NCBI GenBank assembly: GCA_964016885.1 | Contig: OZ024743.1 | Span: forward strand, 234,856,001-234,920,000 | Source of the DNA: Eledone cirrhosa | Lineage: Eukaryota | DNA length: 64,000 nt | Direction: 5' to 3' | Part shown: positions 6,268 through 56,856 of the stretch, in pieces | Numbering within the stretch: position 1 is the stretch's first letter | Layout: every line of letters starts with the position of its first letter | Translations under genes and position numbers: made by a program | The notes under the pieces: model-generated | What the model was told of the DNA's origin: nothing | Databases searched by the model: none | Seen by the model: the letters and a program-made list of their open reading frames with translations, nothing else

Positions 6268-9200
6268 TTACTGTGGGTCTAATACACAAATTCTTTTGGT
6301 GAGAACTTGTTTTGGAAAGAGGCTATCTTTTACCAGATCACTGAGTTCATTCAAGGCCAAATTTGTTTGTAATTTAACAGCTTCATTGTGTTCTTCAGAT
6401 TCAATGGATTTTAATAATTTATATAAATCCTTTAAAATGTCTTGTAGAAGAACAAAAGTGTCTTTTCCAAGTCCTTGTAACAACTGTGTAATGAGAAGAA
6501 CTGCAGCAGCTCGTACCTCAGCATTGCTGTCATGTTTTGCCAAACTGCTACAGCAAGAGAATATCTCATAAATAACATTGCCTAATGAAAAACGAAGAAG
6601 TTTACAAACTTCACCAAGGTTAGATATGCTGCTTGCACGCACCAAGAAATCATTGTCTTTTGCACCTTGCAAAAATGCACCAAGCAAAATATTTTTAAAT
6701 TTCACCACTGTTTCATTAAGCCCTCGTGTCACCTTTACAAGGCACTCTCCAAGTTTGATTTTCAACTCAGATGAAACAGCTTCACCATTGTGAATTTCTG
6801 ATTCTGGATCTTTGAATAATTCAATTATCCTTGGTACCACTTTATCAGGGAAACAATCAGCCAGGGAAGCCAGACCATTCACTGCAGAAAGATAGATATA
6901 GGAATCTGGGTGGGTCAGTTTTTCTTCAAAGACATGTAAAATAAGATCTTGTTTTCTGACAGCCTCTTTATTTCTATTCTGAATTAATTGACTCAATACA
7001 ATTAACCCATGACCCTGGACAGGAACTAATGAGTCATACGTATCTTTTAATGCTGCCTGCAGCTCAGAATAATGAGAATTCTTCTCTTCAGTGGAATTGT
7101 TGCTCGTCTTGAAATTATTAGCTTTAGCAAAATTTGATTGTAATGTATTATTTTCAGATAGACTGTTTTTCCTGTTTAAGTTATCCCCATCTTTGGCTGG
7201 TATTTCATTAATGTTGGGTGATATAGTGTTGGAATCTGACTGACACAAATGTTTCTCCTCAGTTTCTCTCCCAAGAAGTTCATCTAATGATTCATCATTA
7301 GAAAAGTTAGCTGTGGCTTTGTTTCCATATGATTCACTTGAAGAATCTTCAATAACATGTTTAAATTTTTGGTCTTTATTAGGAGATTGTACATTGTTTT
7401 TAGATTGTTCATTTGCTACCAAAATGGCTGAGTCCATATCAGGCCAAACTGCTCCATATGTAGCAATAGCAATACGCAAGCTAGAGGCCATTGCTTTAAT
7501 ACTTTGGTTATTTGTACTGGTTATCACATTCTGAAGAAGGGGGATAAATGTTCTCATACTATTTTGTTCTTCATTAGACATTTCCATGGCACCTGCCACA
7601 AGAGCTGTCAGTAGACCAAGGGACATGGTTAAGATCTCATTTGTAAAGATACATTCAAAGTCAAACTCATTCTCATTAGTTTTATGACAACTTTTAATTA
7701 AAGCAGCTTTGATGAATTCTAGTACATACTTTGTACTCCTTCCACTAGTAGAGCCCTGTTTCTCATAGATGGCTACTATGAAAGTGAGGGTTGTTAACTG
7801 ATGAAACACTTCATCAGATCCATCTGCAAAACTTTCCAAGTTGTTTTTGTCTAGATCTCCAGGAAATCCACTCTCGGGACTTACTTGTGAAGTTAAAGTT
7901 TGAGTAAGGTCTTGAAGCAAGTCTATAAATAAATTTTCTAATAATCTAGTGGGTTTTATCTTATCAAGCAAATCGATCAGATTATTGATCGTGTTTGAAT
8001 CTTCTGAAAAGAAATCATACTGTCCCATTTTGTTATTGTCAAAGACAACGCTAACAGTGTTGTTGTTCCCTACTGTAAAATCTAAAGAGACGTGCATTAA
8101 AGCGATTTTTAATTGGGGGTTTTTGTTTGTAGTTTTAAAAATAAAAGACTTCAAGCACATAACTGCTTTTTCTTTATCAAGAAATTTTAAATAAGTGAAT
8201 AAGAGTTCTTCTGATAACTTTTTAACGTCAATGGGTGCATCGTTCCAACAAAATAAACAGAAAATAACATGAATAAACTGTTTCAGGCTGGTTAATAAAT
8301 AAGAATGTGGTTCACAACCAAGAACGAAGAGTTTGTGGCAGTTATGTAAAGATTTGTTAAATTCACTCTCATTAATTACAGATGCACCTTGCAATGTTGT
8401 GTCTTTATGTAAATATTCAATACAGGTATAAAAAGGAGCAAAAATATTCCGTAAACAGTATTTTTCAAATATATCAGGTTGTTGTTTAGATACAAAACTA
8501 AGGGTGCAACAAGCGACACGCAAGAATTGTTGTGACATCTCCATATCATTGCAGTTAAGCAAAGCATTTACTTGAGGCAGTATTAAATTATAATAGTCAT
8601 CAACTTTTTCATTCAAAGACAGAACGTTAGCAATTACTTTTGAAATACCTTCACATATTTTATCCTCCTCAATTGGGTTCTTGGAATCTGTGACTGATGC
8701 ATCAAGCATGCCTTGAACAATATACAACACACCATTTGGCTTAAGGAGAATTTTTGTTAGATTTTGACTGCAGGCATTTTTTAGCCAATGGGGGGCTGGT
8801 GAAAAATTAGAAGTAGCAAATTTTATATCCAAATTGCTCTCATTTAGTTGTTTAAGAATTGTCGGTGTTGGAACACCTTCCAGAAATACAAGTTCTTTCA
8901 CCAAGGACGGTTGATAAGATCCATTGACAAGTTTTTCAAGAAATTTATGGCAAAATGCAATATCTTGGTCAGTAACAAGAAGATGATTTGAACATTTTTC
9001 ATGACTAGTCTTTACTGGATCACACGAGCCAGCAGAAACTGTATTTTTTACAGTTTCGACTGGCATTTTCGAAGAGAAAATATCACAAAAATTGATATCT
9101 CCAGATAACAAACTTTCTATTATATTATTAAAGGATAATTTTCTTAAATTGATTTCCTTTTCTGTTTCTGCCTGAGTGGGCTTCTGTGGAGGATATTTTT

Positions 9201-9852
9201 TGATTCCATAGCACAACTGGACTACAACAGCAAGACAATCTCCTAAATGACGCGACAACAATAAACTACCCAACGACGTTCGGCTGAGACAGACTGAAAA
9301 CACGCGAGCAACTAGTAATAATCTAAATTGCCTTTCTAATATTGATTTAGCCTCTGGCTTACAACATAACAACAATGAACCGTAATCCGATCTTTGTTGT
9401 AGTGGGAAGCCAACACCTTTAGCAAAATAAGGATAAACTCCGAGATAAATGATGAACTGTATCGTATTGCTGAACACTTTCTGTTGCTTGATGCTCAGTA
9501 TATCAGGAGGAGCAGCTTCTCTACTTTTTAGTTTTTCTTGTCCATCATTTCGAGAGAGATCATGAAGAATTAATAACATGGCTTCATTGAGAATAAGGCA
9601 CGTTGATGCAAATTTCCATTTCAGACTTGAATCAGACGAGAAATAATGCGATTGTCTCTTGGTATAAAATGTATATAAAGTTTGGAATTTGGCATCTTTA
9701 CTGAGTTTATGACAAAAATCTTCAAAACTATTTTCAAGTAGGAAATCCAGTTTGTCAAAGCTTGATGGCTCTTTATTTAAGATCTCCCATTTCCCAGGAG
9801 AAGTCAAAATCTCCATAGCTTCTATAGTTATCGGCAGCTGAGATGCCATCAT
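6268..9852 (-). CDS. TANGO6: Transport and Golgi organization protein 6 homolog (TANGO6/TMCO7/Rtp1 family), single coding exon, 1194 aa
   Basis: Uninterrupted ORF with family-type segments APPDILSIKQQK..IQFIIYLGVYPY, DSLVPVQGHGLIVL, HPDSYIYLSAVNGL, DFLVRASSISNLGEVC and EVRAAAVLLI. Recognised from memory. Confidence 0.9.
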   Translation of the reverse strand: MMASQLPITIEAMEILTSPGKWEILNKEPSSFDKLDFLLENSFEDFCHKLSKDAKFQTLYTFYTKRQSHYFSSDSSLKWKFASTCLILNEAMLLILHDLSRNDGQEKLKSREAAPPDILSIKQQKVFSNTIQFIIYLGVYPYFAKGVGFPLQQRSDYGSLLLCCKPEAKSILERQFRLLLVARVFSVCLSRTSLGSLLLSRHLGDCLAVVVQLCYGIKKYPPQKPTQAETEKEINLRKLSFNNIIESLLSGDINFCDIFSSKMPVETVKNTVSAGSCDPVKTSHEKCSNHLLVTDQDIAFCHKFLEKLVNGSYQPSLVKELVFLEGVPTPTILKQLNESNLDIKFATSNFSPAPHWLKNACSQNLTKILLKPNGVLYIVQGMLDASVTDSKNPIEEDKICEGISKVIANVLSLNEKVDDYYNLILPQVNALLNCNDMEMSQQFLRVACCTLSFVSKQQPDIFEKYCLRNIFAPFYTCIEYLHKDTTLQGASVINESEFNKSLHNCHKLFVLGCEPHSYLLTSLKQFIHVIFCLFCWNDAPIDVKKLSEELLFTYLKFLDKEKAVMCLKSFIFKTTNKNPQLKIALMHVSLDFTVGNNNTVSVVFDNNKMGQYDFFSEDSNTINNLIDLLDKIKPTRLLENLFIDLLQDLTQTLTSQVSPESGFPGDLDKNNLESFADGSDEVFHQLTTLTFIVAIYEKQGSTSGRSTKYVLEFIKAALIKSCHKTNENEFDFECIFTNEILTMSLGLLTALVAGAMEMSNEEQNSMRTFIPLLQNVITSTNNQSIKAMASSLRIAIATYGAVWPDMDSAILVANEQSKNNVQSPNKDQKFKHVIEDSSSESYGNKATANFSNDESLDELLGRETEEKHLCQSDSNTISPNINEIPAKDGDNLNRKNSLSENNTLQSNFAKANNFKTSNNSTEEKNSHYSELQAALKDTYDSLVPVQGHGLIVLSQLIQNRNKEAVRKQDLILHVFEEKLTHPDSYIYLSAVNGLASLADCFPDKVVPRIIELFKDPESEIHNGEAVSSELKIKLGECLVKVTRGLNETVVKFKNILLGAFLQGAKDNDFLVRASSISNLGEVCKLLRFSLGNVIYEIFSCCSSLAKHDSNAEVRAAAVLLITQLLQGLGKDTFVLLQDILKDLYKLLKSIESEEHNEAVKLQTNLALNELSDLVKDSLFPKQVLTKRICVLDPQ

Positions 9853-10333
9853 GTTAATGATTCAATAAGAATAAAATGACAGGATATCAGGGAGAAATAC
9901 TTAGCAGACATAAAACGAACTGCACTAACCTTCCATGTTGATTGTGTAATATTTTGATTTCCTTTGACTGAAGAGTGTGAGGAGAAACAGTAAGACAAAA
10001 ATAGATAGGCTGGAGAAATAGAATGACTAACAGAAAGCAGAGGTAGCGAGATTAAACGGAATAGATAATACAGGGCGATGAGATAAAGCACGACAGAGAA
10101 AGAATCTAAGAGAAAGGTGTTGAGTGATATAGTAGAAATTAAAAGAATGAAAATGTGTGTCATTGATATCTTCGAATACGACAATTTAATAAGAGAGAGA
10201 GAGGGTGGGAGATAGCAAGATATCAGACTGATCTCCCTTGAGTATGAATCTTTCCAAAGAAGATACTAATTCCATTCTACTAAGGGTATTGTTGTAAGAA
10301 TCTGCGATTCTAAACCTTGTCTCCATTGACCAA
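9853..10333. promoter_or_regulatory. Probable bidirectional promoter/5'UTR region between TANGO6 and cactin
   Basis: Only 481 bp separate the divergent start codons. A - strand acceptor (tctcctcacactcttcag|, exon from 9967) suggests a TANGO6 5'UTR intron. Confidence 0.6.
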
Positions 10334-30900: not shown

Positions 30901-32843
30901 ATGGCAGTGAAACATAAAGCAATGATACACTATGATGTCCTTTGTTATCATTCTATGCTGACACAGATTGAAAAAAGCCAACTCCTATTTAGAATTACTG
31001 CCCTCCTAGATAAGCTAAAGGACCATGTTTACTTAGTTAAATTGACACAGATAAATTGGTTGCACTGCTTCCTGTACAAATAATTCTTGTGTCTAGACAA
31101 AGACACAATATCTGTGTTGTTATGGTACTGAATTACAGATAATTTGGTTATGAGTTCAAATTTCACTACCACCATTGTATTGTATCTTTGAGGAGTAATT
31201 TACATAATTCTGTTTGCTTGATTGATAAACCTGGTTCTATTTCATAGAAGTAAGGACATCCAGCTATAAAATCAATTTCTCCAACAAAGCCTTCCCTACT
31301 TATGCTAGTATTGAATAAATCAATGTAAAACATATCTCATTTGGAAAACTTTTTAATATCGTTACTTCTTAGGGTGGTAGTTTGCAGTATCAGTAGAGCG
31401 TCGGATAGCATGCTTTACAACCCTTTACATTTTGAGTTTAAATCCTGCTGAGGTTAGCTTAGCCTTTCATCCTTACTGGGACAATAAAATAAAGTACCAG
31501 TAATGCACTGGAGTCGATTTAATTAACTTTCCCTTTATATTGCTGGTCTTGTGCTAAATCAGAAATGATTATTTCTTAAGATTGGCTTTTCTTTACAATT
31601 TAATTGTTTTTTCTCTTTACAGACTCCTTGCAATGACAATAAAGATTTTGCTCTGTTACGGTTTCATGCAGGACCACCGTATGAGGTAAATATCACTTTA
31701 TGTCTACTCTGGGTGTTATTATTCAGGAATTAGAGAAGCTTTTGGAAATATTAATTTACTTTGTTGCTTTTTGATGCAAACTTTATTATGAGACTAAGAA
31801 GTTAAAAGGGAGTTTAAGAACATTACACTAAAACTTTAATCTTTGCTAAGTTCAGCATCTCAGTAACTATCCCTGATAATTGAGCTGCTTTTCCTACTTT
31901 CATATTTGCACTTTTGATTGTATGGTTGTTAACTTCTTTTACAGATGTCATCCTCTCTACATATCACATGCCCATATCAATACAGCCTTCTCTCTTGCAC
32001 ACTACATCACATTCCTCTTATGCATAGTTTTTCTCAGTTCACTTATGCTGCAATGTTCATGCACATTACACATCCACCAGAGCATATAGCCTCCTTTCTG
32101 ATGAAACAAAATTTATTACTGTGTCAGATTTATCTGAATGGTCAGTAACCAGTTGGATAGCTTGTATTGTAGATGCTACTTTATTCTTCATCACAAGGCT
32201 CCTGTTACCTCTTACTTTTTACATTGTTGTAATATAGCTGCACTCTCCATGACCACCACCCACCAGTGTATAATTATTCTTGTGTGATGAATAAAACAAA
32301 GAAAGAATTAATCAGATATGTTTCAGAAATTCATTCTTACAGATTAAAACTGTAAAGTCAGGTCCAATATTACAAGAAGTTGTTTTTTGCTGTCACAGCC
32401 CTAAACAATGAAACCAGAAAAACATTTTTTAAATAATTTAATGTGTATAGTGTAGTTAATATGAAGTATTGTGAAATATGTAATAAAAGACTGATAATGT
32501 TTTTTTTTAAAGAAGATACAATATGGTAGAAAAATACAAAGGGTAAATGATGTTGAATAAAACAAAACAAAGTAATGTTTTACCCAGTGTATTTCAACAT
32601 AATATTTCAAATGTGGAGCTGAAACAGTTCAAAACAAAATGAGCAATCAATGTGTTCTTCCTTATTAATGTATATTTATTTGTACATTATAACAGTGTGT
32701 GATTTCTTTCTCTACAGGATATTGCATTCAAGATTGTCAACCGTGAATGGGAATATTCATACAAGCGAGGTTTCCGCTGTCAATTCCAGAACAACATTTT
32801 CCAGCTATGGTTTCACTTTAAACGTTATCGTTATCGAAGATAA
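10334..32843 (+). CDS. CACTIN: Splicing factor Cactin, 19 coding exons, 710 aa
   Basis: GT-AG exons with consistent phases: 10334-10419, 11795-12001, 12843-12912, 13599-13652, 15313-15459, 16693-16764, 18072-18134, 19215-19269, 19960-20048, 21001-21154, 23321-23467, 24392-24501, 26358-26566, 27151-27340, 27917-28072, 28897-28980, 30147-30197, 31623-31685, 32718-32843 (sum 2133 nt). Motifs: ETPEEKRARR, GYTNADNPFGD, AKPIDLL, YRPRKPRFFNRVHTGFEWNKYNQTHYD, RFHAGPPYEDIAFKIVNREW, LWFHFKRYRYRR*. AATAAA at 32892. Exon 1 is the least certain. Confidence 0.93.
10510..10712. repeat. Three-copy ~65-bp tandem repeat in cactin intron 1
   Basis: cacact(t/a)cgtatgttagg(c)cccacataa...ttcttc(a/g)tgctgaagg(a/c)atcc occurs three times. 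Confidence 0.7.
14405..14995 (-). mobile_element. 5'-truncated RTE LINE, well preserved, in cactin intron 4
   Basis: ORF 14428-15027 reads GGGCSEAIVSRIRTGWKKFRELLPLL...RRLRWYGHVMRM...GRPRKTW. Has an (ATG)n tail and TA-repeat flanks. Same family as 1-513 and 33981-34366. Confidence 0.92.
18399..18748 (+). mobile_element. Composite SINE family B (tRNA-like head, CORE-like body, RTE 3' tail)
   Basis: A-box tggctgagtgg and B-box gagttcaattct, then ccttgagcaagacactttatttcacattgctccag, then a tail identical to the RTE tail. Copies: 20273-20500(-), 36246-36577(-), 60806-61188(+), 15148-15235(+, truncated). Confidence 0.88.
18804..18935. repeat. Foldback element, 49-bp arms with 2 mismatches
   Basis: Arms 18804-18852 and 18887-18935 are reverse complements. 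The loop contains CTGATGA. Confidence 0.85.
20666..20914. repeat. ~250-bp imperfect palindrome made of two inverted minimal hammerhead ribozyme relics
   Basis: Minus arm: CTGATGA-aagatt-aaca-aatctt-GAAAC. Plus arm: gtgtct-CTAATGA-aagattaacaaattat-GAAAC-agtt-GTC-tgacat. Confidence 0.75.
22820..23008 (+). mobile_element. tRNA-derived SINE family A with 16-bp TSD
   Basis: Head ggcggtggattggcagtatcggtagag...gagttcaaatccc; body gcgtttcatccttacggggtcgataaaataaagtaccag. TSD attataactatacctc at 22803-22818 and 23006-23021. Approximate copies: 31370-31570, 38183-38370, 44468-44651(-), 52491-52682(-), 52715-52905, 55262-55478, 59724-59910, 59917-60077, 62328-62510, 62524-62640. Confidence 0.9.
23540..23820. 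repeat. Degenerate minisatellite (ctgtccagttgataacatatatag core)
   Basis: About 10 imperfect tandem copies in cactin intron 11. Confidence 0.8.
24650..25395. repeat. 42-bp minisatellite made of three 14-bp subunits
   Basis: ccaccatgtattag / ccactagatatcag / ccaccatataccac repeated with subunit drop-outs, in cactin intron 12. Confidence 0.92.
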
Positions 32844-33339
32844 GATTTTACTCAACTCTTCAGATTTTTACAGCATTGTATATTTTTAAATAATAAATCA
32901 ATTTTCTATGGAGCTCTTCGTCCACTTATTCCTGAGAGAGTTTCAGGGCAGAGTCCTCAAACTCACCTTCCGGAGGGTCCTATCAGAAGCAACTGTCTCC
33001 AACTGATACACAGTGAGGTTCACAGGGAAATAGGATTTCAAACATGCATAACTCTTGATTTATACATCTTATAAAGCTCAACAACCACTTTTTAAAAGGC
33101 TACTTCACTCTAGTATTTGATTTTTACTGAAGATATATTAACAAAACCTCATAGAAATGTTATTTTTCTGTTTACAGAAATACCTAAAAAAGCATAAATA
33201 TCATCATATAGATGAAGAATCATGTTGGAATAGATATTTTCTCATAAATTTGACATCAACATAAAGGCAGCAAGGGAGAAACATTGCAGGTAGAAAATGA
33301 AAAAGTTTGAAATTCTGTTTTTATTGATAAGAACGAGTT

Positions 33340-35215
33340 CAGATTGCACAAACCATTGATTAAAATGTGTCAATATCATTTGAAGGGGTTTTTGTATGTT
33401 TTTAGTCTGATGAGTAGTTTTTATCGCAGCTAAAGCAATAAATTATATTGTCCTGGTTTAACTTCATTTAGCTGTGAAGAATTCGAGGATGTGATCACCT
33501 ACCCATGACACTGAAAATCTGATCATCTGAAGATGTCTTGCATACATGTGACTCTAGGTACTTGCAAATATGCAATACTTATTGGTTGTTTCCAAGTCTT
33601 CTACACTGTGAACCAAGTCCATATCTATCATTCAGACACATGAGTTCTGTGGCATAGTGAATAACATCATGGAGTGTATGATTTATTTTTCACCCACTGA
33701 AATTTTGTGGCGATCAATATTTAATTCAATGTTGCAATGAAATTACTTGAAGAAAGCAAAGTTGAAGTAACGATAAATATGTCCTTTGTGTAATCCTTAA
33801 CACTTTAACATTTAAACCAACCGTATCCAGCCAGAATTCTCTCTCTTCTTTCTGTTCAAACTCGCCATAACTGGCTACTTATACTTATGTTAAGGTGTTG
33901 TTCTCAAAATAAATATCAAAATCTCATAGATTCAATATTATGTGAGGTAAAGCCTTTGCTGTGAAAATACAATAGTATATATATGCGACGGCTGGAGAGA
34001 AATGAGGTAAGCATGCTCCGTTGGATGTGCAGTGTCAATATGCGTGAACGACCCAGCATGAATGTGTTGAAAGAGAAACTGTCTGAGAGGGATAGAATGT
34101 AGTGTGCGAGAGAGGAGACTGAGGTGGTATGGACATGTGATGCGCATGGAGGATGACCGATGGGTGAAGACGTGCCAGTTGAAGGAAAACGTGGTAGAGG
34201 TAGACCACGAAAAACATGGGCGGAGGTGGTGAGAACAGAACTCAGATCACTGAAGCTCACGGTGGAGATGACGAAGGACTGTGTCAAGTGGAGAGATGCT
34301 GTGTTGAATAAGACCCGTCCCACTCTTGCAAGCAGGGAAAAGTGGATGTAAAATGATGATGATGATATAGAGTAATCTAAATGCTAAACGGTTAATTGAC
34401 AGAATAAGCTCAACACTGAAGAAACAATGACCTGTATTACTGTCAGTTTATGTACCTCACTGTCTACATTCAAGGCCATGCAAGTATTTTGAAAAGTTAT
34501 TTCAAAAACTCTTTGTTTTAATTTTTGAATATGTTCACTCTTAAACTTGGAATATTTAGTTTGGCCTATATAAAAAAAAACAACCCTTTAGCATTTGCAT
34601 TACTCTGTTTACTGTTGTATTTTCGCAGTAAAGGCTTTACCTCATGTAGTTATCTCACATAATATTGAATCTATGAGATTTTGATATTTATTTTGAGAAC
34701 AATACCTTAACACCAGTATGAGCAATTGGTTACAGGCAGTTTGAACAGAAAGAGGTAAGAGAATTCTGGCCAGTTTAAATGCTAATGGGTTAAGTGTTAA
34801 AACACTTTAAGAACCAGGTTGTTATATTGATATACATGTGTGTGATGGTTATTGAGTGCTGATCTGAGGTAGTTATTGACTCCTGTGTTATTGCTTTTCT
34901 GATATCGAAATCGCTTGGTTTCCTATTTATGTTGCCATCATTATCAATCACGGACTGTATAACAACCATGTTTCTACTGCATTTCAATTTATATCAAATC
35001 CCTCTATTATTTTTGTATCATTCCAACTGTCTTGAGTACTGACACACAAAATACATGCTACCCCTCCAAGACCAGATCAAGCACTTTTTAATTTTAAGTT
35101 TTTCATATTGCCCATTATCTTCACCTTAACATGGGTGACTGATCAACAATTTTAAGAGTCATACCGTTTTGGTTTAGTTCATCTCTTGCAACAGCAGTTG
35201 TGTGAATGATATAAT
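33340..35215 (-). pseudogene. RAG1-like/Transib DDE transposase pseudogene, core C-terminal part
   Basis: Manual translation across stops, frameshifts and inserts: IIHTTAVARDELNQNGMTLKI..VKVKIMGNMKNLKLKSA*SGLGGVACILC...RKPSDFDIRKAITQESITTSDQHSITITHMYINITTWFLKCF / EHIQKLKQRVFEI...GT*TDSNTGHCFFSVE / LIATKFQWVKINHTLHDVIHYATELMCLNDRYGLGS..EDLETTNKYI.KYLESH..KTSSDDQI..VMGR...SHPRIL...YCFSCDKNY. The order matches RAG1 GYDEK...CTLC...KGVSAKP...LH..I...NGNFAR...FHKTLAH...EGNESGNK. Confidence 0.8.
33797..34395. mobile_element. TTAA MITE containing a 5'-truncated RTE LINE (33981-34366, +)
   Basis: TTAA at 33797-33800 and 34392-34395. The MITE halves join across an RTE fragment with an (ATG)n tail. Confidence 0.85.
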
Positions 35216-35339
35216 CATTGCATGAGGTGATATTATGTGCCACTTACCACCATGACTACAATCACTACTAACACCATGGGGTGATATGTCTGTATTAAAC
35301 CACACTCACCACCACTACAATCGCTACTAACACCATGGG

Positions 35340-36222
35340 GTGATGTGTCCTATATTGACCACACTCACCACCACTAACATCATGGGGCAAAATTATGTGC
35401 CACATCAAACCACACTCATCACTACTTATATCATGGGGCAAAATTATGTGCCACATCAAACCACACTCATCACTACTTATATCATGGGGCAAAATTATGT
35501 GCCACATCAAACCACACTCATCACTACTTATATCATGGGGCAAAATTATGAGCCACATCAAACCACACTCATCACTACTTATATCATGGGGCAAAATTAT
35601 GTGCCACATCAAACCACACTCATCACTACTTATATCATGGGGCAATATTATGTGCCACATCAAACCACACTCATCACTACTTATATCATGGGGCAATATT
35701 ATGTGCCACATCAAACCACACTCATCACTACTTATATCATGGGGCAAAATTATGAGCCACATCAAACCACACTCATCACTACTTATATCATGGGGCAATA
35801 TTATGTGCCACATCAAACCACACTCATCACTACTTATATCATGGGGCAAAATTATGAGCCACATCAAACCACACTCATCACTACTTATATCATGGGGCAA
35901 AATTATGTGCCACATCAAACCACACTCATCACTACTTATATCATGGGGCAAAATTATGTGCCACATCAAACCACACTCATCACTACTTATATCATGGGGC
36001 AATATTATGTGCCACATCAAACCACACTCATCACTACTTATATCATGGGGCAATATTATGTGCCACATCAAACCACACTCATCACTACTTATATCATGGG
36101 GCAATATTATGTGCCACATCAAACCACACTCATCACTACTTATATCATGGGGCAAAATTATGAGCCACATCAAACCACACTCATCACTACTTATATCATG
36201 GGGCAATATTATGTGCCACATT
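35340..36222. repeat. 51-bp minisatellite, about 17 near-identical units
   Basis: Unit atcatggggcaa(a/t)attatg(t/a)gccacatcaaaccacactcatcactacttat. Degenerate units lie upstream from about 35215. Confidence 0.97.
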
Positions 36223-36586
36223 GAATCACAATCATAATATATATATCATTTCATTTTACGTCCGCTTTTTCCCTGCTTGCAAGGGTGGGACGGGAACTGA
36301 TGCTGGCTTGATTTCTACAGCTGGATGCCCTTCCTAACACCAACCTCATTTACAGTGAGTGCTGGGTGATATTTTGCCGTGGCACCTCCACGACCACTTT
36401 GCAGTGGAATGATATGGACCCCAGTCCCTATCATCTCATTTCTACAACTGAGTAAACTGGAGCAATGGGAAATAAAGTGTCTTGCTCAAGGAAACAACAC
36501 ATCACCCGGTCTGAGAATTGAACTCACAACCTTTCGATTGCAAGGCCAATGCTCTAACCACTAAGCCATGTGCCTCCATATATATA

Positions 36587-37332
36587 TTTGCTTTATCCTT
36601 CTATGTTGTTTACTTGTCTCACTCGCTTTACGCGACTCACTTGTCCCAATAGCTTTTTTTAGTTATTGCTCGCACCAACCTGAGGTATATGATTTTTAAT
36701 GCGATGAAATACCAATGATGGTTGGCAAATCACTGACGAGGGACTAATTTTATAATATGTAACCCATGTGCAATCACGCAGTATTCCTCTTCATGTTTTT
36801 TATACTATTTACCTCGGCTGCGTTTGTCTGTTTCTCTCTCACTGCTCCCCCGTTCTCTCTGTTTCTCTCACCTTCTTTCGCCCCCTCTGTCAGTTACACT
36901 TTCTCTCGACTGACCTCTTCCTCGCACTTCCACTCACTCACTCTGTTTCTCCCCTTCTCACTTCCTCCCGTTTCGTTGGTAGTGGGGTTCTTTCTTTCTT
37001 TCTCACATCTCACTCACGTCGGACGGTCTGTATTCTGAACGCTCATGAAATCCACCCAGCTTATGCTGACTGGACAACCATGTTGCTTGTTTTTTTCCCT
37101 AACTTCGGTTTGCTTTATCCTTCTATGTTGTTTACTTGTCTCACTCGCTTTACGCGACTCACTTGTCCCAACAGCTTTTTTTAGTTATTGCTCGCACCAA
37201 CCTGAGGTATATGATTTTTAATGCGATGAAATACCAATGATGGTTGGCAAATCACTGACGAGGGACTAATTTTATAATATGTAACCCATGTGCAACCACG
37301 CAGTATTCCTCTTCTCATGTTTTTTATACTAT
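36587..37332. mobile_element. Element with ~220-bp terminal direct repeats (Penelope pseudo-LTR-like, tentative)
   Basis: 36587-36808 is nearly identical to 37109-37332. The interior is pyrimidine-rich and the element is flanked by (TA)n. Confidence 0.5.
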
Positions 37333-39831
37333 ATATATATATATCAATCATTATACCCCCCTTCCATTCACTATCAAATGTAAGGTTAACAAGGGAATGA
37401 AAAATTACAGAGAAGATTCTCTGTTATATATCCAGATTTTTAATTCATCTGAAACCTGCTTGACTTGAATGGTTATACCAATTAAACCACAAATCTTTCT
37501 GTTGCTGAAGTTACATATTCCTTTGCAATAAATAAAAAAAATGGCAACACAGTTTGAAAGTCCTGAAAACAGAATCAGACTCATTCTAATGAAAATGTAT
37601 CCTACTAATTGCTTTCTTTCAGAATCATATAGGGTTTAGCATACTTCTATTGGCAGATTTTCTCATATAAATCATTTCATTACCAAATCTCCCTGTAAAA
37701 AAAGTCTAAAAGTTTCAGAAACGTAGTTCCAACCTTGCCCTTTTCAGACAAAGTTGTCCCAAAATTGTTTATTTGTTGAAATTTTGTCTTCTTTAATCAG
37801 TCCTTGAAGATAACTATTAATATTAAGCCTCTGTAAGGGAATACCTTATAGAAGTACGTGATATTTTTATCAAAATTCACTGTAGACTGTTTTTGAGAAT
37901 ATGTATACATATAATTTTTTGGACCTCTTATCACAAAACTATTACAGATATAGCACAAATATAAGCAATTAGGATACTATATGATGAAAAATTCTGCCCC
38001 CCCCCCCCCTTCCTTTATGCCCACTGTATGATACCATGTTATGTGTGGTCTACGTCTGCCTGTAAAAATTGTCTATTGATTCTTTCTTTAAACATTCTAA
38101 CCACATGTCCAAAGTATTGGAGCTGCGATCTCTAAATGTCGCTCATTGGACTAAATTGCTATTACCATTATTAAAAAAAACACGGTGGTTTGGCAGTATC
38201 GGTAAAGGGTCAGACGCCATGCTTTGCAGCATAGAGTTACCTCCCTTTATGATCTGAGTTCAAATCCCGCTGAGGTTAACTTTGCCTTTCATCCTTACAG
38301 GGTCGATAAAATAAAGTACCAGTAATACACTGAGATAATTGCTGGTCTTCTGCCAAAAGTAGAAACAATTATAAAAAAAAAAACACATAAAACGAAAAAA
38401 GTCTTATGTAATTTCGTATAAAATAATTTTATTTTAAAAATAAAATGCATTTTTTTTTTTTAAATATTTAATTACGAAAGGCATACACATTTGAAGAGAC
38501 AGAAGATGTATAAAGGTTACAATAGAGTCAAAGAGAGAGATGTATAAAGGTTACAACGACAGAAGATGTATAAAGGTTACAGTAGCAGTACAGAAGGAAA
38601 ATATGTTAGTGATGGTTGTAGAAGCAATAGAATAGACAGATTGCAGTTATATCCCAATCATCAGCTACTACTAGTACCTTTAAAAGCCAAAGAGGGAGCC
38701 TCTAGACTGTAAGTCTTACAAATCCCTAAGATGGGAAGCTCATGGAAGGAATACTTTTGATCATGGTCGATCTGGGGCTAAACAACCTTTCAGGTAGGGT
38801 GTACCGAAATATTGTCCTCTGTCAACTTTAAAAAATCCGTTTAGAATGAAAAAGTAAAAACACCTTGTATGCCTAAATTATGTATCTGTGTCCATATTGA
38901 AGGCTTTGTCAAAGAGAAACAGTTTTGGCAGAGTGCATTATTCTCCAGAATATTTAATATAGCTGGAAATTGTTCAAGGTACAAGATTAAGCAATACAAG
39001 AATTGAACCTTGTATTGCAAACTTCACTCACTAGGAATTTATCATTATCCGTGTGTATATCATGACTCATACACTGTTCATTTTCCTGACATTTGTACAT
39101 AACTCTATGTACTATACATGCACATTTGATGAGTTGTAGTGCACATGAGCACTGTACACAATTTTCATTTTTTTTTTTTTTTTTTTTTTTCTTATCATCA
39201 TCATCATTGTTTAATGTCCATTTTTCCAAGCTAGCATGGCTTAGACACCTTTGCAATATGTACAAATAAATATTGCATGAAAATGCATGTTAGCAAAGAG
39301 AAAATAAATAAAAAGAAAAGTCGTGTGTGTCCAGTGAGAATTGAATCTCTATCCTCTGAGTAATGGCCAAGTACATACACCATCTTCCGTTTATGATTTA
39401 GAAAACAAGTCATTTGATGGAGAAATAAGTATCTCTGTTTTTTTGTTTTTTTCTATAGGCACAATGCTAATTTTTGCAAGAGATACAAGGTAGTTTCAAT
39501 TGAATTGACTGTAAAAGCTGAACTTGGTGAGAATTGAACTTAGAGAAGTGTAAAACTGCAGTCTCAGATAGCTTCATTCTTTTTAAAGAGGGAATATTAG
39601 CTCCTTTCTTAGGGTTCGTGCAATGGGATTTTATAGTCTCTGTTTACCAAATTTCATAGCCAAGGCTATAGAAGATACCGTCCAAATTTCTGCACCAATC
39701 TCAAACTGTGATACAAACTTAAAATCTATTCTCAGCAAGAATTGAACTCAGAATGTAGGGCAATGATATTCAATAATGTAAGGCAGTCCATTTCTGCCAA
39801 TTCCAACAACCTTTATAAAGGAGAGAAAGAA

Positions 39832-40758
39832 TTATGGGCAAGTGAGATTTACATTTTTCAATTGTTGATAAATAATTTTCATATTTCTCGGTGTCACATG
39901 ATGTCCACTTATTGTGTTTTTATAGGCACAACCAGTATGTGGCTTATTATGGATTGTAAACATGTAATTTCCTATTCTTAATGCATTCACTCGATTTGCA
40001 AGTATTCCTGTTACATAAACATCTTCAAGCCAGAAAAGCTTTTCATTAAATGATTCTGCATACAATTCTGGTACAATATCACCTGAAATTAAATAAGCAG
40101 TCCCAGAAACATAGTCAGGAAATTCATTATTTTTGTATTGGGATATGGGTGTGTACCATTTAGATGAACTATGTCTGATAGGTGCAGCATGTTTGAAAAC
40201 TAAACCCATGATAAACCGAGAATGTTTGAAGTGTAGAGCTGCTTTTTCTAATAATGGAAGATTTATATACATATCATCATCTGTTTTCAACACAAATTTT
40301 ACTTTTTTACATGAAAAATTGACCCAGCGTAGGTAAGAAATTGACTTTAAAGACAAATTTTCATAATGATCAATATAGTTCTCTTGTACAATATCACCAT
40401 ATTTTACACTTTCTTCATCAATATCATCTTGAACTCCAGGAATACGTGAAAGGCCTTCAAAAAATACCAACTTAAATTTTGAATTGTTCCAAGCATACTG
40501 ACCCCAAGTCTCTCGTATGGTTTTTCGACGTAGTCTATGTATTGGGGCTGAACACACAGCAACAAGGATCTCAACAGTGTCTGAACAGTTGTTTGTCAAA
40601 TGAATATATGAGGTATAGTGTGACTGTATATTTACATTTGAAAATGGAAGAAATTTGTACCATCTGCTTGAAAATATGTTCATGTAGGTTTCTGAATTGA
40701 TTTGGTTCATGAGAATAATGTAAACAAAAACTGCAGTAACTACTATTGTCATCCACAT
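39832..40758 (-). CDS. Beta-1,3-galactosyltransferase (GT31, B3GALT1/brainiac-like), main coding exon
   Basis: N-terminal TM segment; RRKTIRETWG, ESVKYGDIVQENYIDHYENLSLKS, KFVLKTDDD, FPDYVSGTAYL, LEDVYVTG. An acceptor ttccag| 17 nt upstream of the ATG implies an upstream exon. Confidence 0.93.
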   Translation of the reverse strand: MWMTIVVTAVFVYIILMNQINSETYMNIFSSRWYKFLPFSNVNIQSHYTSYIHLTNNCSDTVEILVAVCSAPIHRLRRKTIRETWGQYAWNNSKFKLVFFEGLSRIPGVQDDIDEESVKYGDIVQENYIDHYENLSLKSISYLRWVNFSCKKVKFVLKTDDDMYINLPLLEKAALHFKHSRFIMGLVFKHAAPIRHSSSKWYTPISQYKNNEFPDYVSGTAYLISGDIVPELYAESFNEKLFWLEDVYVTGILANRVNALRIGNYMFTIHNKPHTGCAYKNTISGHHVTPRNMKIIYQQLKNVNLTCP

Positions 40759-41400
40759 GAAGATTTTTGATTTACCTGGAAATAATCAGAAACAGAGATC
40801 TAATTATGTATATATATATTCATTTATGTTTAGTGGTTCACCACTGGATAGAACTGGTCATTCCGTTTAGTAGGAAAAGCACTCCATGTAAACGAACTAA
40901 GAGAGGGACTAGGCGTAAGAGAAATCAAATCCGGTGTGCAGGAGAGGAGATTGCATTGGTATGGACATGTGATGCATATGAAAGATGACAGCTGCATAAA
41001 AAGGTGCAGATCCCTTGGAGTGGGTGACCCAGGAAGAGGGGAGAAAAGCTAACCTTGCACACAGAACTGAGATCTCTGGTGTTACGCAGCAATACAGAAG
41101 ACTTGACTTCCTACGGGCACAGGCCGAAGCTGAAGCACATATATGGGTCATCACACACCAAGTCAGTACTTAATCAGAGATACTGACCTCTGAGACAGGC
41201 CATGGGTTCACATCTTACATACATTCCTATATTTTACAGACTGTATCAGGTGCATTTAATCATGGCATCCTCTCAGGCAGATCAGAGGTCATCTCATCTC
41301 ACATACATTTTTGCCCTCTGCAGAAAGCACAGGGTGTATTTTATCATGGCACTAGCATGAGAGAAGTTGTATTTAACACAATTGAAGACTCCTTTCACCA

Positions 41401-55200: not shown

Positions 55201-56691
55201 GAATTAAAATACTCTGGTATATTTCAAGAATATATTTATTTCTTCTTATTTATATAATTAAGAGGGCAGTAGATTGGCAGTATCGGTAGAGTGTTAGACA
55301 ACATGCTTTGCGGTATATAGTTACGGTTCTTTATGTTCTGAGTTCAAATCCCACCAAGGTTAGCTTTACCTTTCATCCTTATGGGGTCGATAAAATAATG
55401 TACCAGTAATGCACTGGGGTCAATTTAATCGACTTCCCCAGCTTAAAATTTTTGCCATTGTGCCTAAATCAGAAATCTATATAAAAAAGAAAGAATACTA
55501 AAAATTAAAATGAAATCAATTTAAATAACCCTAAATTTAAATTAATGATTTACAATAATCACTACCCATAAAATGCAACTGAAGAAGTTATGGAAGTACT
55601 AAGCTAATTTTCATTACTTTCAGTTCAACAAAACATGTTTTACAAATTATCAATGAGGTTTTATATTTTCATAGTGTAATGAGACATTACCAAGTCTACA
55701 ATGTAAATGTTGGCATTTGGAAGGGCATCCAGCTGTAGAAACCAAGCCCAAAACAGTTTTGTATGAGCAAGACACGGTCACCTGATCTGGCTCGCCTCAA
55801 ATGGGATAACTCATCTAACCCATGTTAGTGTGGAAAAATGGACATTAAATGGTGATGATGATAAAGTATCAATGAGGTTTTTATTGAAGCAAATTGTCCA
55901 TCAAGGATCAGACGAAATAGGAGGATATCTTGTGGAAAGAGTTTGATAAGCAAGCACCAAAGGAGTTAGAAGAGGAAGAGGACAAAGAAGAGGATAGCTT
56001 TCATGAGCCTGATGAAGAAAACTTCTATGGTTTTGATTCAATCGAATAAATTGCTTAATCTGTTCTTTTTAATAATGATTTCTGATTTAGGCACAAGGCC
56101 AACAATTTTCAGGGGAAGGGAAAGTCGATTAAATCAGCCCCAGTGCATTACTGGTGCTTTATTTTATCAAACTGTAAGGATGAAAATCATCACTACCTTA
56201 TGTGTGCTTTTCTATGCTGGTATGAATGATGGGTTTTGTGTAGTTTACATCTACCAATTTTACATGTAAGGCATTGGTCAGTCTGAGGCTATGAGAGAAG
56301 TCACTTTCCCATGGTATCATGGTGTGGTATAGAACCGGAAACCATGTGAATACAAAGTGAACTTCTTAACCACACAGCCATCCCTGATAAAAGCAGTTTC
56401 AATGAAAGAATTATAAAAAAAATTGTTCCATGCTCCCAGTGAAAGTATAATGATGTAAAAAGAATATTTACCTGAGAAGCCTAAGTCTCCAAGAACAGCA
56501 TATTTACGATGTTGTACACTGCTGATGTTATCAAATACTGCATCAATGACCAAAAAGATAATGCAAGCAAGAAACGCCAATACCCCTACAGCCGAACCAA
56601 ATCGACATGCATTGTTGTCTCCGTTAAATTGGCATTTTTCAAGATACCAGCCACCTGATGCTATACAGCCAAACACCACAACTGAAAACAG
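52203..56691 (-). CDS. SYNGR: Synaptogyrin (MARVEL domain), last three coding exons; exon 1 not found in the window
   Basis: Exons 56691-56472 (LFSVVVFGCIA...CQFNGDNNACRFGSAVGVLAFL...ISSVQHRKYAVLGDLGFS), 54594-54452 (GAWTFMWFVCFCYLADSW...QAAIAFSFFSILSF) and 52397-52203 (...SPYSSFPG..GDPYQQPPFS...FQTPTY*). GT-AG with consistent phases. Candidate AATAAA at 49331-49326. Confidence 0.93.
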
Positions 56692-56825
56692 CTGGAAGAG
56701 AAACGAAATAGGAATATATATATATGTATGTAAGTAAGCAAAAGGCAAACATAAATAATAAAGCAAATGACACAGTAGAATGAAGAAATATATTAGTTTT
56801 ACGCTTGATATAGCATGAAAAGAAT

Positions 56826-56856
56826 GTTAACGTTTCAGACGTTAGGCCTTCATTAG
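56826..56856 (-). ncRNA. Degenerate minimal hammerhead ribozyme motif (Penelope-type relic)
   Basis: The - strand reads CTAATGA-aggcctaacgtct-GAAAC-gttaac. The core CUGANGA is mutated to CUAAUGA. Confidence 0.45.

Follow-up and report, generated by a model that had tools for sequence, protein, structure and literature searches.

The 64,000-nucleotide window that we analysed (Eledone cirrhosa contig OZ024743.1, positions 234,856,001 to 234,920,000 of the forward strand) contains, between its positions 33009 and 38028, what is very likely a dead and internally deleted single-gene Transib DNA transposon. The element lies inside a fragment of a long interspersed nuclear element (LINE), between two 5-bp copies of its target, and it likely arrived by RAG-type cut-and-paste. 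A preliminary description had taken it for a complete RAG1-like element with recombination signal sequence (RSS) ends. We agree that it belongs to the RAG1/Transib superfamily, that it could once move, that its two true ends and a target duplication are present, and that it is now dead. However, it is not complete: it has lost residues 1–334 of the ~720-residue transposase and with them the first catalytic Asp, and only 676 bp are left on that (5') side of the element. Also, although the superfamily was right, the element is a single-gene Transib without a RAG2-like gene, and the second conserved block of its terminal repeat is not the RSS nonamer.

The evidence for the superfamily is the homology of the remnant to the Transib/RAG1 transposase core. 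Residues ~335–717 survive on the minus strand (Table 1), with seven frameshifts and at least four stops. The motifs that were noticed at first are present, in order and over three frames: CILC (35044–35055), RKAITQESI (34874–34900), WFLK (34805–34816), TDSNTG (34430–34447), HTLHDVIHY (33654–33680), and EDLETTNK (33578–33601). The 65-residue open reading frame at 34790–34987 also exists. As for MKNLK, which had been equated with the segment around D708 of RAG1, the Asn codon at 35098–35100 does align with the equivalent Asp, but MKNLK itself spans 35092–35106. This position is Asp in 40 of 40 relatives and Asn in the fossil. Overall, the relatives have the whole D-D-E triad, while in the fossil the region of the first Asp is absent, the second is Asn, and the Glu is retained. 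With a cutoff of E ≤ 1e-3, the best-kept piece had matches to 44 library proteins (lowest E, 2e-10), one of which (P0002) is a repeat artefact. It includes the alpha11-12 stretch, where 68 of the 69 positions between C392 and H462 are filled and which aligns to RAG1 and BbeRAG1L but not to HzTransib. In the tail, both Cys are retained and the rest has decayed. No match to residues 1–334 was found in 37353–38016 (profile scores were no better than those of controls), and 33035–33341 has no Pfam match in six frames.

Relatives of the transposase are encoded at 15 loci among 560 candidate metagenome stretches, and the intact ones have ~720–830 residues and no RING region. One of them is L027:926–4917, a whole and intact-looking single-gene Transib of 3,992 bp, with an open frame of 744 codons and a 5-bp duplication, CTGGG. 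(Its D264-equivalent reads Asn, at a residue that is conserved in 37 of 37 relatives.) Each terminus of L027 has a 14-bp block that starts with CACAGTGGGC and a 10-bp block that contains GGAAATAGG, and the spacer between them measures 3 bp in one terminus and 12 bp in the opposite one. The proteins of the family end in CxxC-x4-H-x4-H in 33 of 38 cases; one has the canonical CCGHC knuckle and four match neither pattern. The cluster of one protein (P0106) includes three short fragments that carry the label "RNA chaperone Hfq, Escherichia coli", probably an artefact of clustering or labelling.

Could the element instead have decayed from a RAGL (ProtoRAG-type) transposon, with loss of the RAG2-like gene and of the N-terminal region of RAG1? 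Heptamer-like ends and a 5-bp duplication are common to RAGL (accessible part of PMC7204232), both the alpha11-12 insert and the NBD-like (nonamer-binding domain) region align to RAG1, and the N-terminal half is missing from the fossil and so is unreadable there. Nevertheless, we consider this explanation very improbable. The RING family is absent from the Pfam matches of the scanned relatives (in the fossil, that region is deleted). No second gene was found in L027 (no Pfam matches in 12 flanking frames), and no RAG2-like gene or other Pfam match was found in the flanking frames that survive in the window, its deleted part being excluded. In the fossil, only ~330 bp separate the 3' end of the gene from the terminus. 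The family's best sequence match is HzTransib, which scores above BbeRAG1L and has the GTSTDGN motif in common with the family. Finally, the terminus consensus given for protostome RAGL, CACTWMCAAAC, does not fit (PMC7204232, accessible part). Because the family lacks a RAG2-like gene and the RING region, it falls outside RAGL as the accessible part of that paper delimits it.

Both ends of the element are authentic. Letter for letter as first described, TGATA at 33004–33008 is followed by an exact heptamer, CACAGTG, from 33009, and CACTGTA runs up to 38028 and is followed by TGATA at 38029–38033. So, terminal inverted repeats that start with CAC are present, exactly at 33009 and with one change, in base 1, at 38028. 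A pair of heptamers with a duplication is weak evidence by itself: of 125 candidate pairs in the window, one is flanked by a 5-bp duplication, and when dinucleotide shuffling was applied to the window 200 times, at least one such pair arose in 14.5% of cases. What makes the pair solid is independent evidence from terminus models, from a genome-wide pattern, and from the split host repeat. First, a matrix from five independent relatives' termini (both ends of L027 plus L030, L033, and L041; the divergent end of L029 was excluded) places 38028 first among 127,976 positions, with 14.0 bits against 12.8 for the runner-up. Similarly, a bipartite model ranks 33009 first among the bipartite sites in the window (16.3 bits; runner-up, 10.4), and block 2 at that end is one base off its offset in L027 and L041. 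Second, the bipartite pattern, relaxed at one base and in its spacing to fit the window's form, occurs once in the 3.0-Gb genome and not at all in the control. The heptamer is simply how the terminal repeat of this Transib family starts (CACAGTGGGC), and the repeat's second conserved block, GGAAATAGG, is different from the RSS nonamer.

Third, the two flanks are the halves of one high-copy LINE piece, and both are collinear within ~100 bp in 18 of 23 fetched copies of this repeat. All 20 aligned copies show a gap that starts at the junction, and the right flank picks up ~48 bp further on. Uninterrupted copies have a single TGAT(C/A) at the target (TGATC in 15 of 20, TGATA in 2 of 20). Where the right flank resumes, 14 of the 20 copies have TCCAA or a one-letter variant, six were unparsed, and none has TGATA. 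The right TGATA is therefore foreign to the host repeat, which supports a true duplication. The host copies translate to a LINE end of the GRPR..RWLDNI type, which we take to be RTE-like. They are ~81% identical to one another and to the flank in the window; as the divergences are alike, the host repeat and the Transib family may be similar in age, in relative terms only. The abundance of RTE-type LINE pieces is in keeping with an octopod host (PMC10294476, accessible part), as is the size of the genome (about 3 Gb in Octopus; PMC12682272, accessible part).

These data also bear on whether the ends and the duplication are a chance match beside a real transposase remnant, with the true boundaries elsewhere. 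Besides the frequency of such pairs in shuffled windows, this explanation can draw on the lack of any other copy that retains an end and on a host repeat that is not seamless at the junction. We give it very little credence, slightly less than the RAGL explanation, because independent models put both sites first, because block 2 is so close to its expected place, and because reads from other copies of the host repeat depart from the window at exactly 33007–33008 (406 reads of run X5 and 311 of run X6).

Several observations do weigh against a Transib with confirmed ends. As no second copy in the genome keeps a terminus (by genome searches, within the fetched stretches), the ends lack confirmation from copy-to-copy boundaries. 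Block 2 is unrecognisable at the 5' end; it is seen only at the 3' end, in the short form, while in L027 the short form lies at the 5' end. TGATA is present on both sides, but the fifth base of the right copy is ambiguous and may derive from across the ~48-bp deletion, as that deletion adjoins the junction, and only TGAT is duplicated beyond doubt. The structural Z score is tied between HzTransib and RAG1. Last, it is by protein features that the family would fall in Subgroup I of the Transibs, the branch nearer to RAG1: our tree was built from family members only.

If the Transib moved as HzTransib and RAG do, by nick-and-hairpin cleavage with 5-bp duplications (10.1101/2023.08.20.553239 and PMC1131882, accessible parts), then a transposase dimer would have bound both terminal repeats, the flanks would have been nicked and hairpinned as the element was cut out, and its ends would have been joined to the LINE target with a 5-bp stagger. 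The ancestral ends may have been bipartite and asymmetric, as in L027. The zinc-knuckle tail would likely have gripped block 2, much as the CCGHC tail of BbeRAG1L binds TR2 (10.1101/2023.08.20.553239, accessible part). Today, this copy is unable to make the enzyme. In all likelihood it neither functions nor moves and is inert, because base 1 is changed at one end, block 1 is damaged at the other, no intact source was found, and there is no enzyme.

Table 1. The element, its later insertions, and its surroundings (positions in the window).
Feature	Positions	Strand	Evidence or remarks
Last coding exon of cactin, neighbouring host gene (context, outside the element)	32718..32843	+	Pfam CactinC_cactus, E 2.9e-15
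Left half of host repeat, a presumably RTE-like LINE piece	32915..33008	-	3059 candidates at first look; identity of the best copies 86-90%; matches stop at 33007-33008
Target-site duplication, left copy TGATA	33004..33008	none	Sequence; uninterrupted host-repeat copies (n = 20): TGATC 15, TGATA 2, other 3
3' terminal repeat: CACAGTG, damaged remainder of block 1, block 2 GGAAATAGG at 33026-33034	33009..33034	+	Best bipartite-model match in the window
3' subterminal non-coding DNA	33035..33341	none	72-79% BLAST identity to the C6 and C18 copies
Transposase remnant, residues ~546-717 of relative P0020: ZnH2 His H608 retained, H613 changed to Tyr, catalytic Glu retained, zinc-knuckle tail decayed	33342..33800	-	tblastn E 1.3e-8; frameshift-aware profile alignment; residue table
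Later insertion 1: TTAA-flanked miniature inverted-repeat transposable element (MITE) with nested LINE fragment (~33985-34365)	33801..34395	none	Empty in the C3 copy; boundaries; likeness to insertion 2
Transposase remnant, residues ~476-545, with decayed GTSTDGN..RRFF motif	34396..34583	-	Profile alignment
Later insertion 2: same MITE family, opposite orientation	34584..34793	none	Likeness to insertion 1; more copies in L014 and L015
Transposase remnant, best kept, residues 335-475: second catalytic Asp changed to Asn (35098-35100), CxxC zinc ligands retained, alpha11-12 insert	34794..35216	-	tblastn E 1.3e-23 to P0020
Later composite insertion, 2.1 kb: minisatellite, high-copy repeats, piece with 218-bp direct repeats	35220..37352	none	AATCATT flanking both sides
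5' subterminal DNA of the element	37353..38016	none	Collinear with the C6 copy, which also has the 3' subterminal piece
5' terminal repeat, block 1 = TACAGTGGGCAT; first base unlike the family's C	38017..38028	-	Rank 1 with the terminus matrix
Target-site duplication, right copy TGATA	38029..38033	none	Sequence
Right half of host LINE piece, resuming ~48 bp downstream of the target	38034..38137	-	Collinear with the left half in repeat copies

The first two of the inserts that were proposed at first proved to be TTAA-flanked MITEs. They are identical at 166 of 193 aligned bases, in inverted orientation, and a copy of the Transib family on contig C3 is empty at the site of insertion 1. Their ends are presumably of the piggyBac type. 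Within the composite insertion, the minisatellite (35358–36249) has 17.5 copies of a 51-bp unit with 96% matches and is open in several frames on both strands. The piece at 36587–37326, which has a match in L015, carries, flanked by TA runs, a pair of direct repeats of 218 bp with 97% identity and a separation of 522 bp, and is possibly a small element, either like those with long terminal repeats or tandem-derived.

The element begins 165 bp beyond the stop codon of cactin. That proximity, its being the sole copy found with both ends, and a few reads from other individuals that cover it might suggest a remnant kept by selection, such as a regulatory or 3'-end element of cactin, but this seems highly improbable given the heavy decay, the large deletion, the three insertions, an AATAAA at 32892–32897 (between the cactin exon and the host LINE piece, and so upstream of the element), and a cactin-exon contig in run X4 (the kind of run is not recorded) that ends at 32871.

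Elsewhere in the window, a TANGO6 homologue lies at 6268–9861 on the minus strand as one intronless open frame of 1197 codons, and a single-exon galactosyltransferase (Pfam Galactosyl_T, E 1.7e-44) lies at 39832–40785, also on the minus strand. The open frame at 56317–56826 (minus strand) is a candidate exon that, we presume, resembles an exon of synaptogyrin, and the other genes of the window may lie within introns of this putative synaptogyrin gene.

The preliminary description had called for a search for other copies with ends and an intact reading frame. We found neither: the genome has four further decayed fragments of the family (on C3, C6, C17, and C18; Kimura two-parameter distances 0.13–0.27), none with a terminus within the fetched stretches, and no intact copy turned up in searches that give lower bounds. 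Two more distant Transib-type fossils of other lineages are also present (L020, C7:81819272–81819613, and L024, C23:8039825–8040010).

A cluster look-up added a family member from another octopod, a hypothetical protein of 729 residues from Argonauta hians (GAB1599992.1, our P0164). Its three catalytic residues and its zinc ligands are all in place, and it is 98.8–98.9% identical to three full-length proteins from environmental assemblies. In contrast, its identity to the fossil is 38.9% across 324 positions, and it lies on a different branch of the tree. Being so close to the environmental proteins and so distant from the fossil, it suggests that Transibs entered octopods separately, and recently in Argonauta; contamination, or argonaut DNA in the environmental samples, are the alternatives. 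GAB1599992.1 is thus a candidate for recent horizontal transfer or contamination.

As for novelty, the preliminary description knew of no such element from cephalopods. For octopods this stands, in that we found no description of a Transib element in the literature searched, including the accessible portions of PMC9885083 and PMC12220107. For cephalopods at large it does not: an automated repeat table lists DNA/CMC-Transib at 0.196% in Architeuthis and 0.051% in Euprymna and gives 0 for Nautilus and for two Octopus species (PMC8967140, Table S2, from the accessible part). With the fossil, an octopod thus has a Subgroup I-type Transib on record, including its sequence and ends, where that survey gave 0 for two Octopus species. 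In itself it is an ordinary dead transposon, and its value is as a pointer to intact relatives. Tentatively, and with more doubt than confidence, we propose that it represents a large and unannotated clade of marine, RAG2-free transposases, with a RAG1-like NBD region, alpha11-12, a CCHH zinc-knuckle tail, and end spacers that differ by 9 bp, which would have entered octopods more than once: anciently in E. cirrhosa and recently, by horizontal transfer, in Argonauta. If so, an intact member would be a living single-protein model for the origin of a 12/23-like pairing rule before RAG2. L027, with a whole enzyme and its own asymmetric ends, and the Argonauta reading frame make it possible to ask if a RAG1-like enzyme pairs unlike ends without RAG2, which bears on how V(D)J recombination originated. 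As Subgroup I and asymmetric Transib ends have already been published (PMC9435367; PMC1131882, accessible part), this extends the idea rather than opening it.

Compared with RAGL/ProtoRAG and RAG1 (PDB 6B40, 5ZDZ), the family has the same D-D-E RNase H core, zinc ligands, alpha11-12, heptamer-like ends, and 5-bp duplication, and its model aligns from 85 to 682 on RAG1 389–1007, including the NBD-like region. Unlike them, it has no RAG2-like gene, RING/N-terminal region, or RSS nonamer, and identity in the structural alignment is 17–20%. HzTransib (Subgroup II; PDB 6PQN, 6PQX) lacks a stretch of ~57 positions (profile 420–476) that the family and RAG1 share, and its solved chain (497 residues) has no counterpart to family residues before ~160. 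The Argonauta protein, compared as protein only, is an intact member of the fossil's own family in an octopod, but of another branch. The closest known system is Subgroup I, which is defined by alpha11-12, a CTT1 tail (CX2CX3GHX4C), and asymmetric ends and includes ctenophore and Hydra elements (Tao et al. 2022, PMC9435367); cephalopods are absent from the main text, searchable supplement, and species table of that paper. The family differs from Subgroup I in a tail that ends in His (33 of 38) rather than the CCGHC knuckle, and the fossil is dead and half deleted. Otherwise the family resembles those Transibs in its single RAG1-core-like gene with an alpha11-12 insert and a Cys/His C-terminal tail, in the GLGGA-x-C-x-LC motif (PMC9435367, supplement), in a terminus that starts with CACAGTGGG, and, as seen in the intact relative L027, in asymmetric ends.

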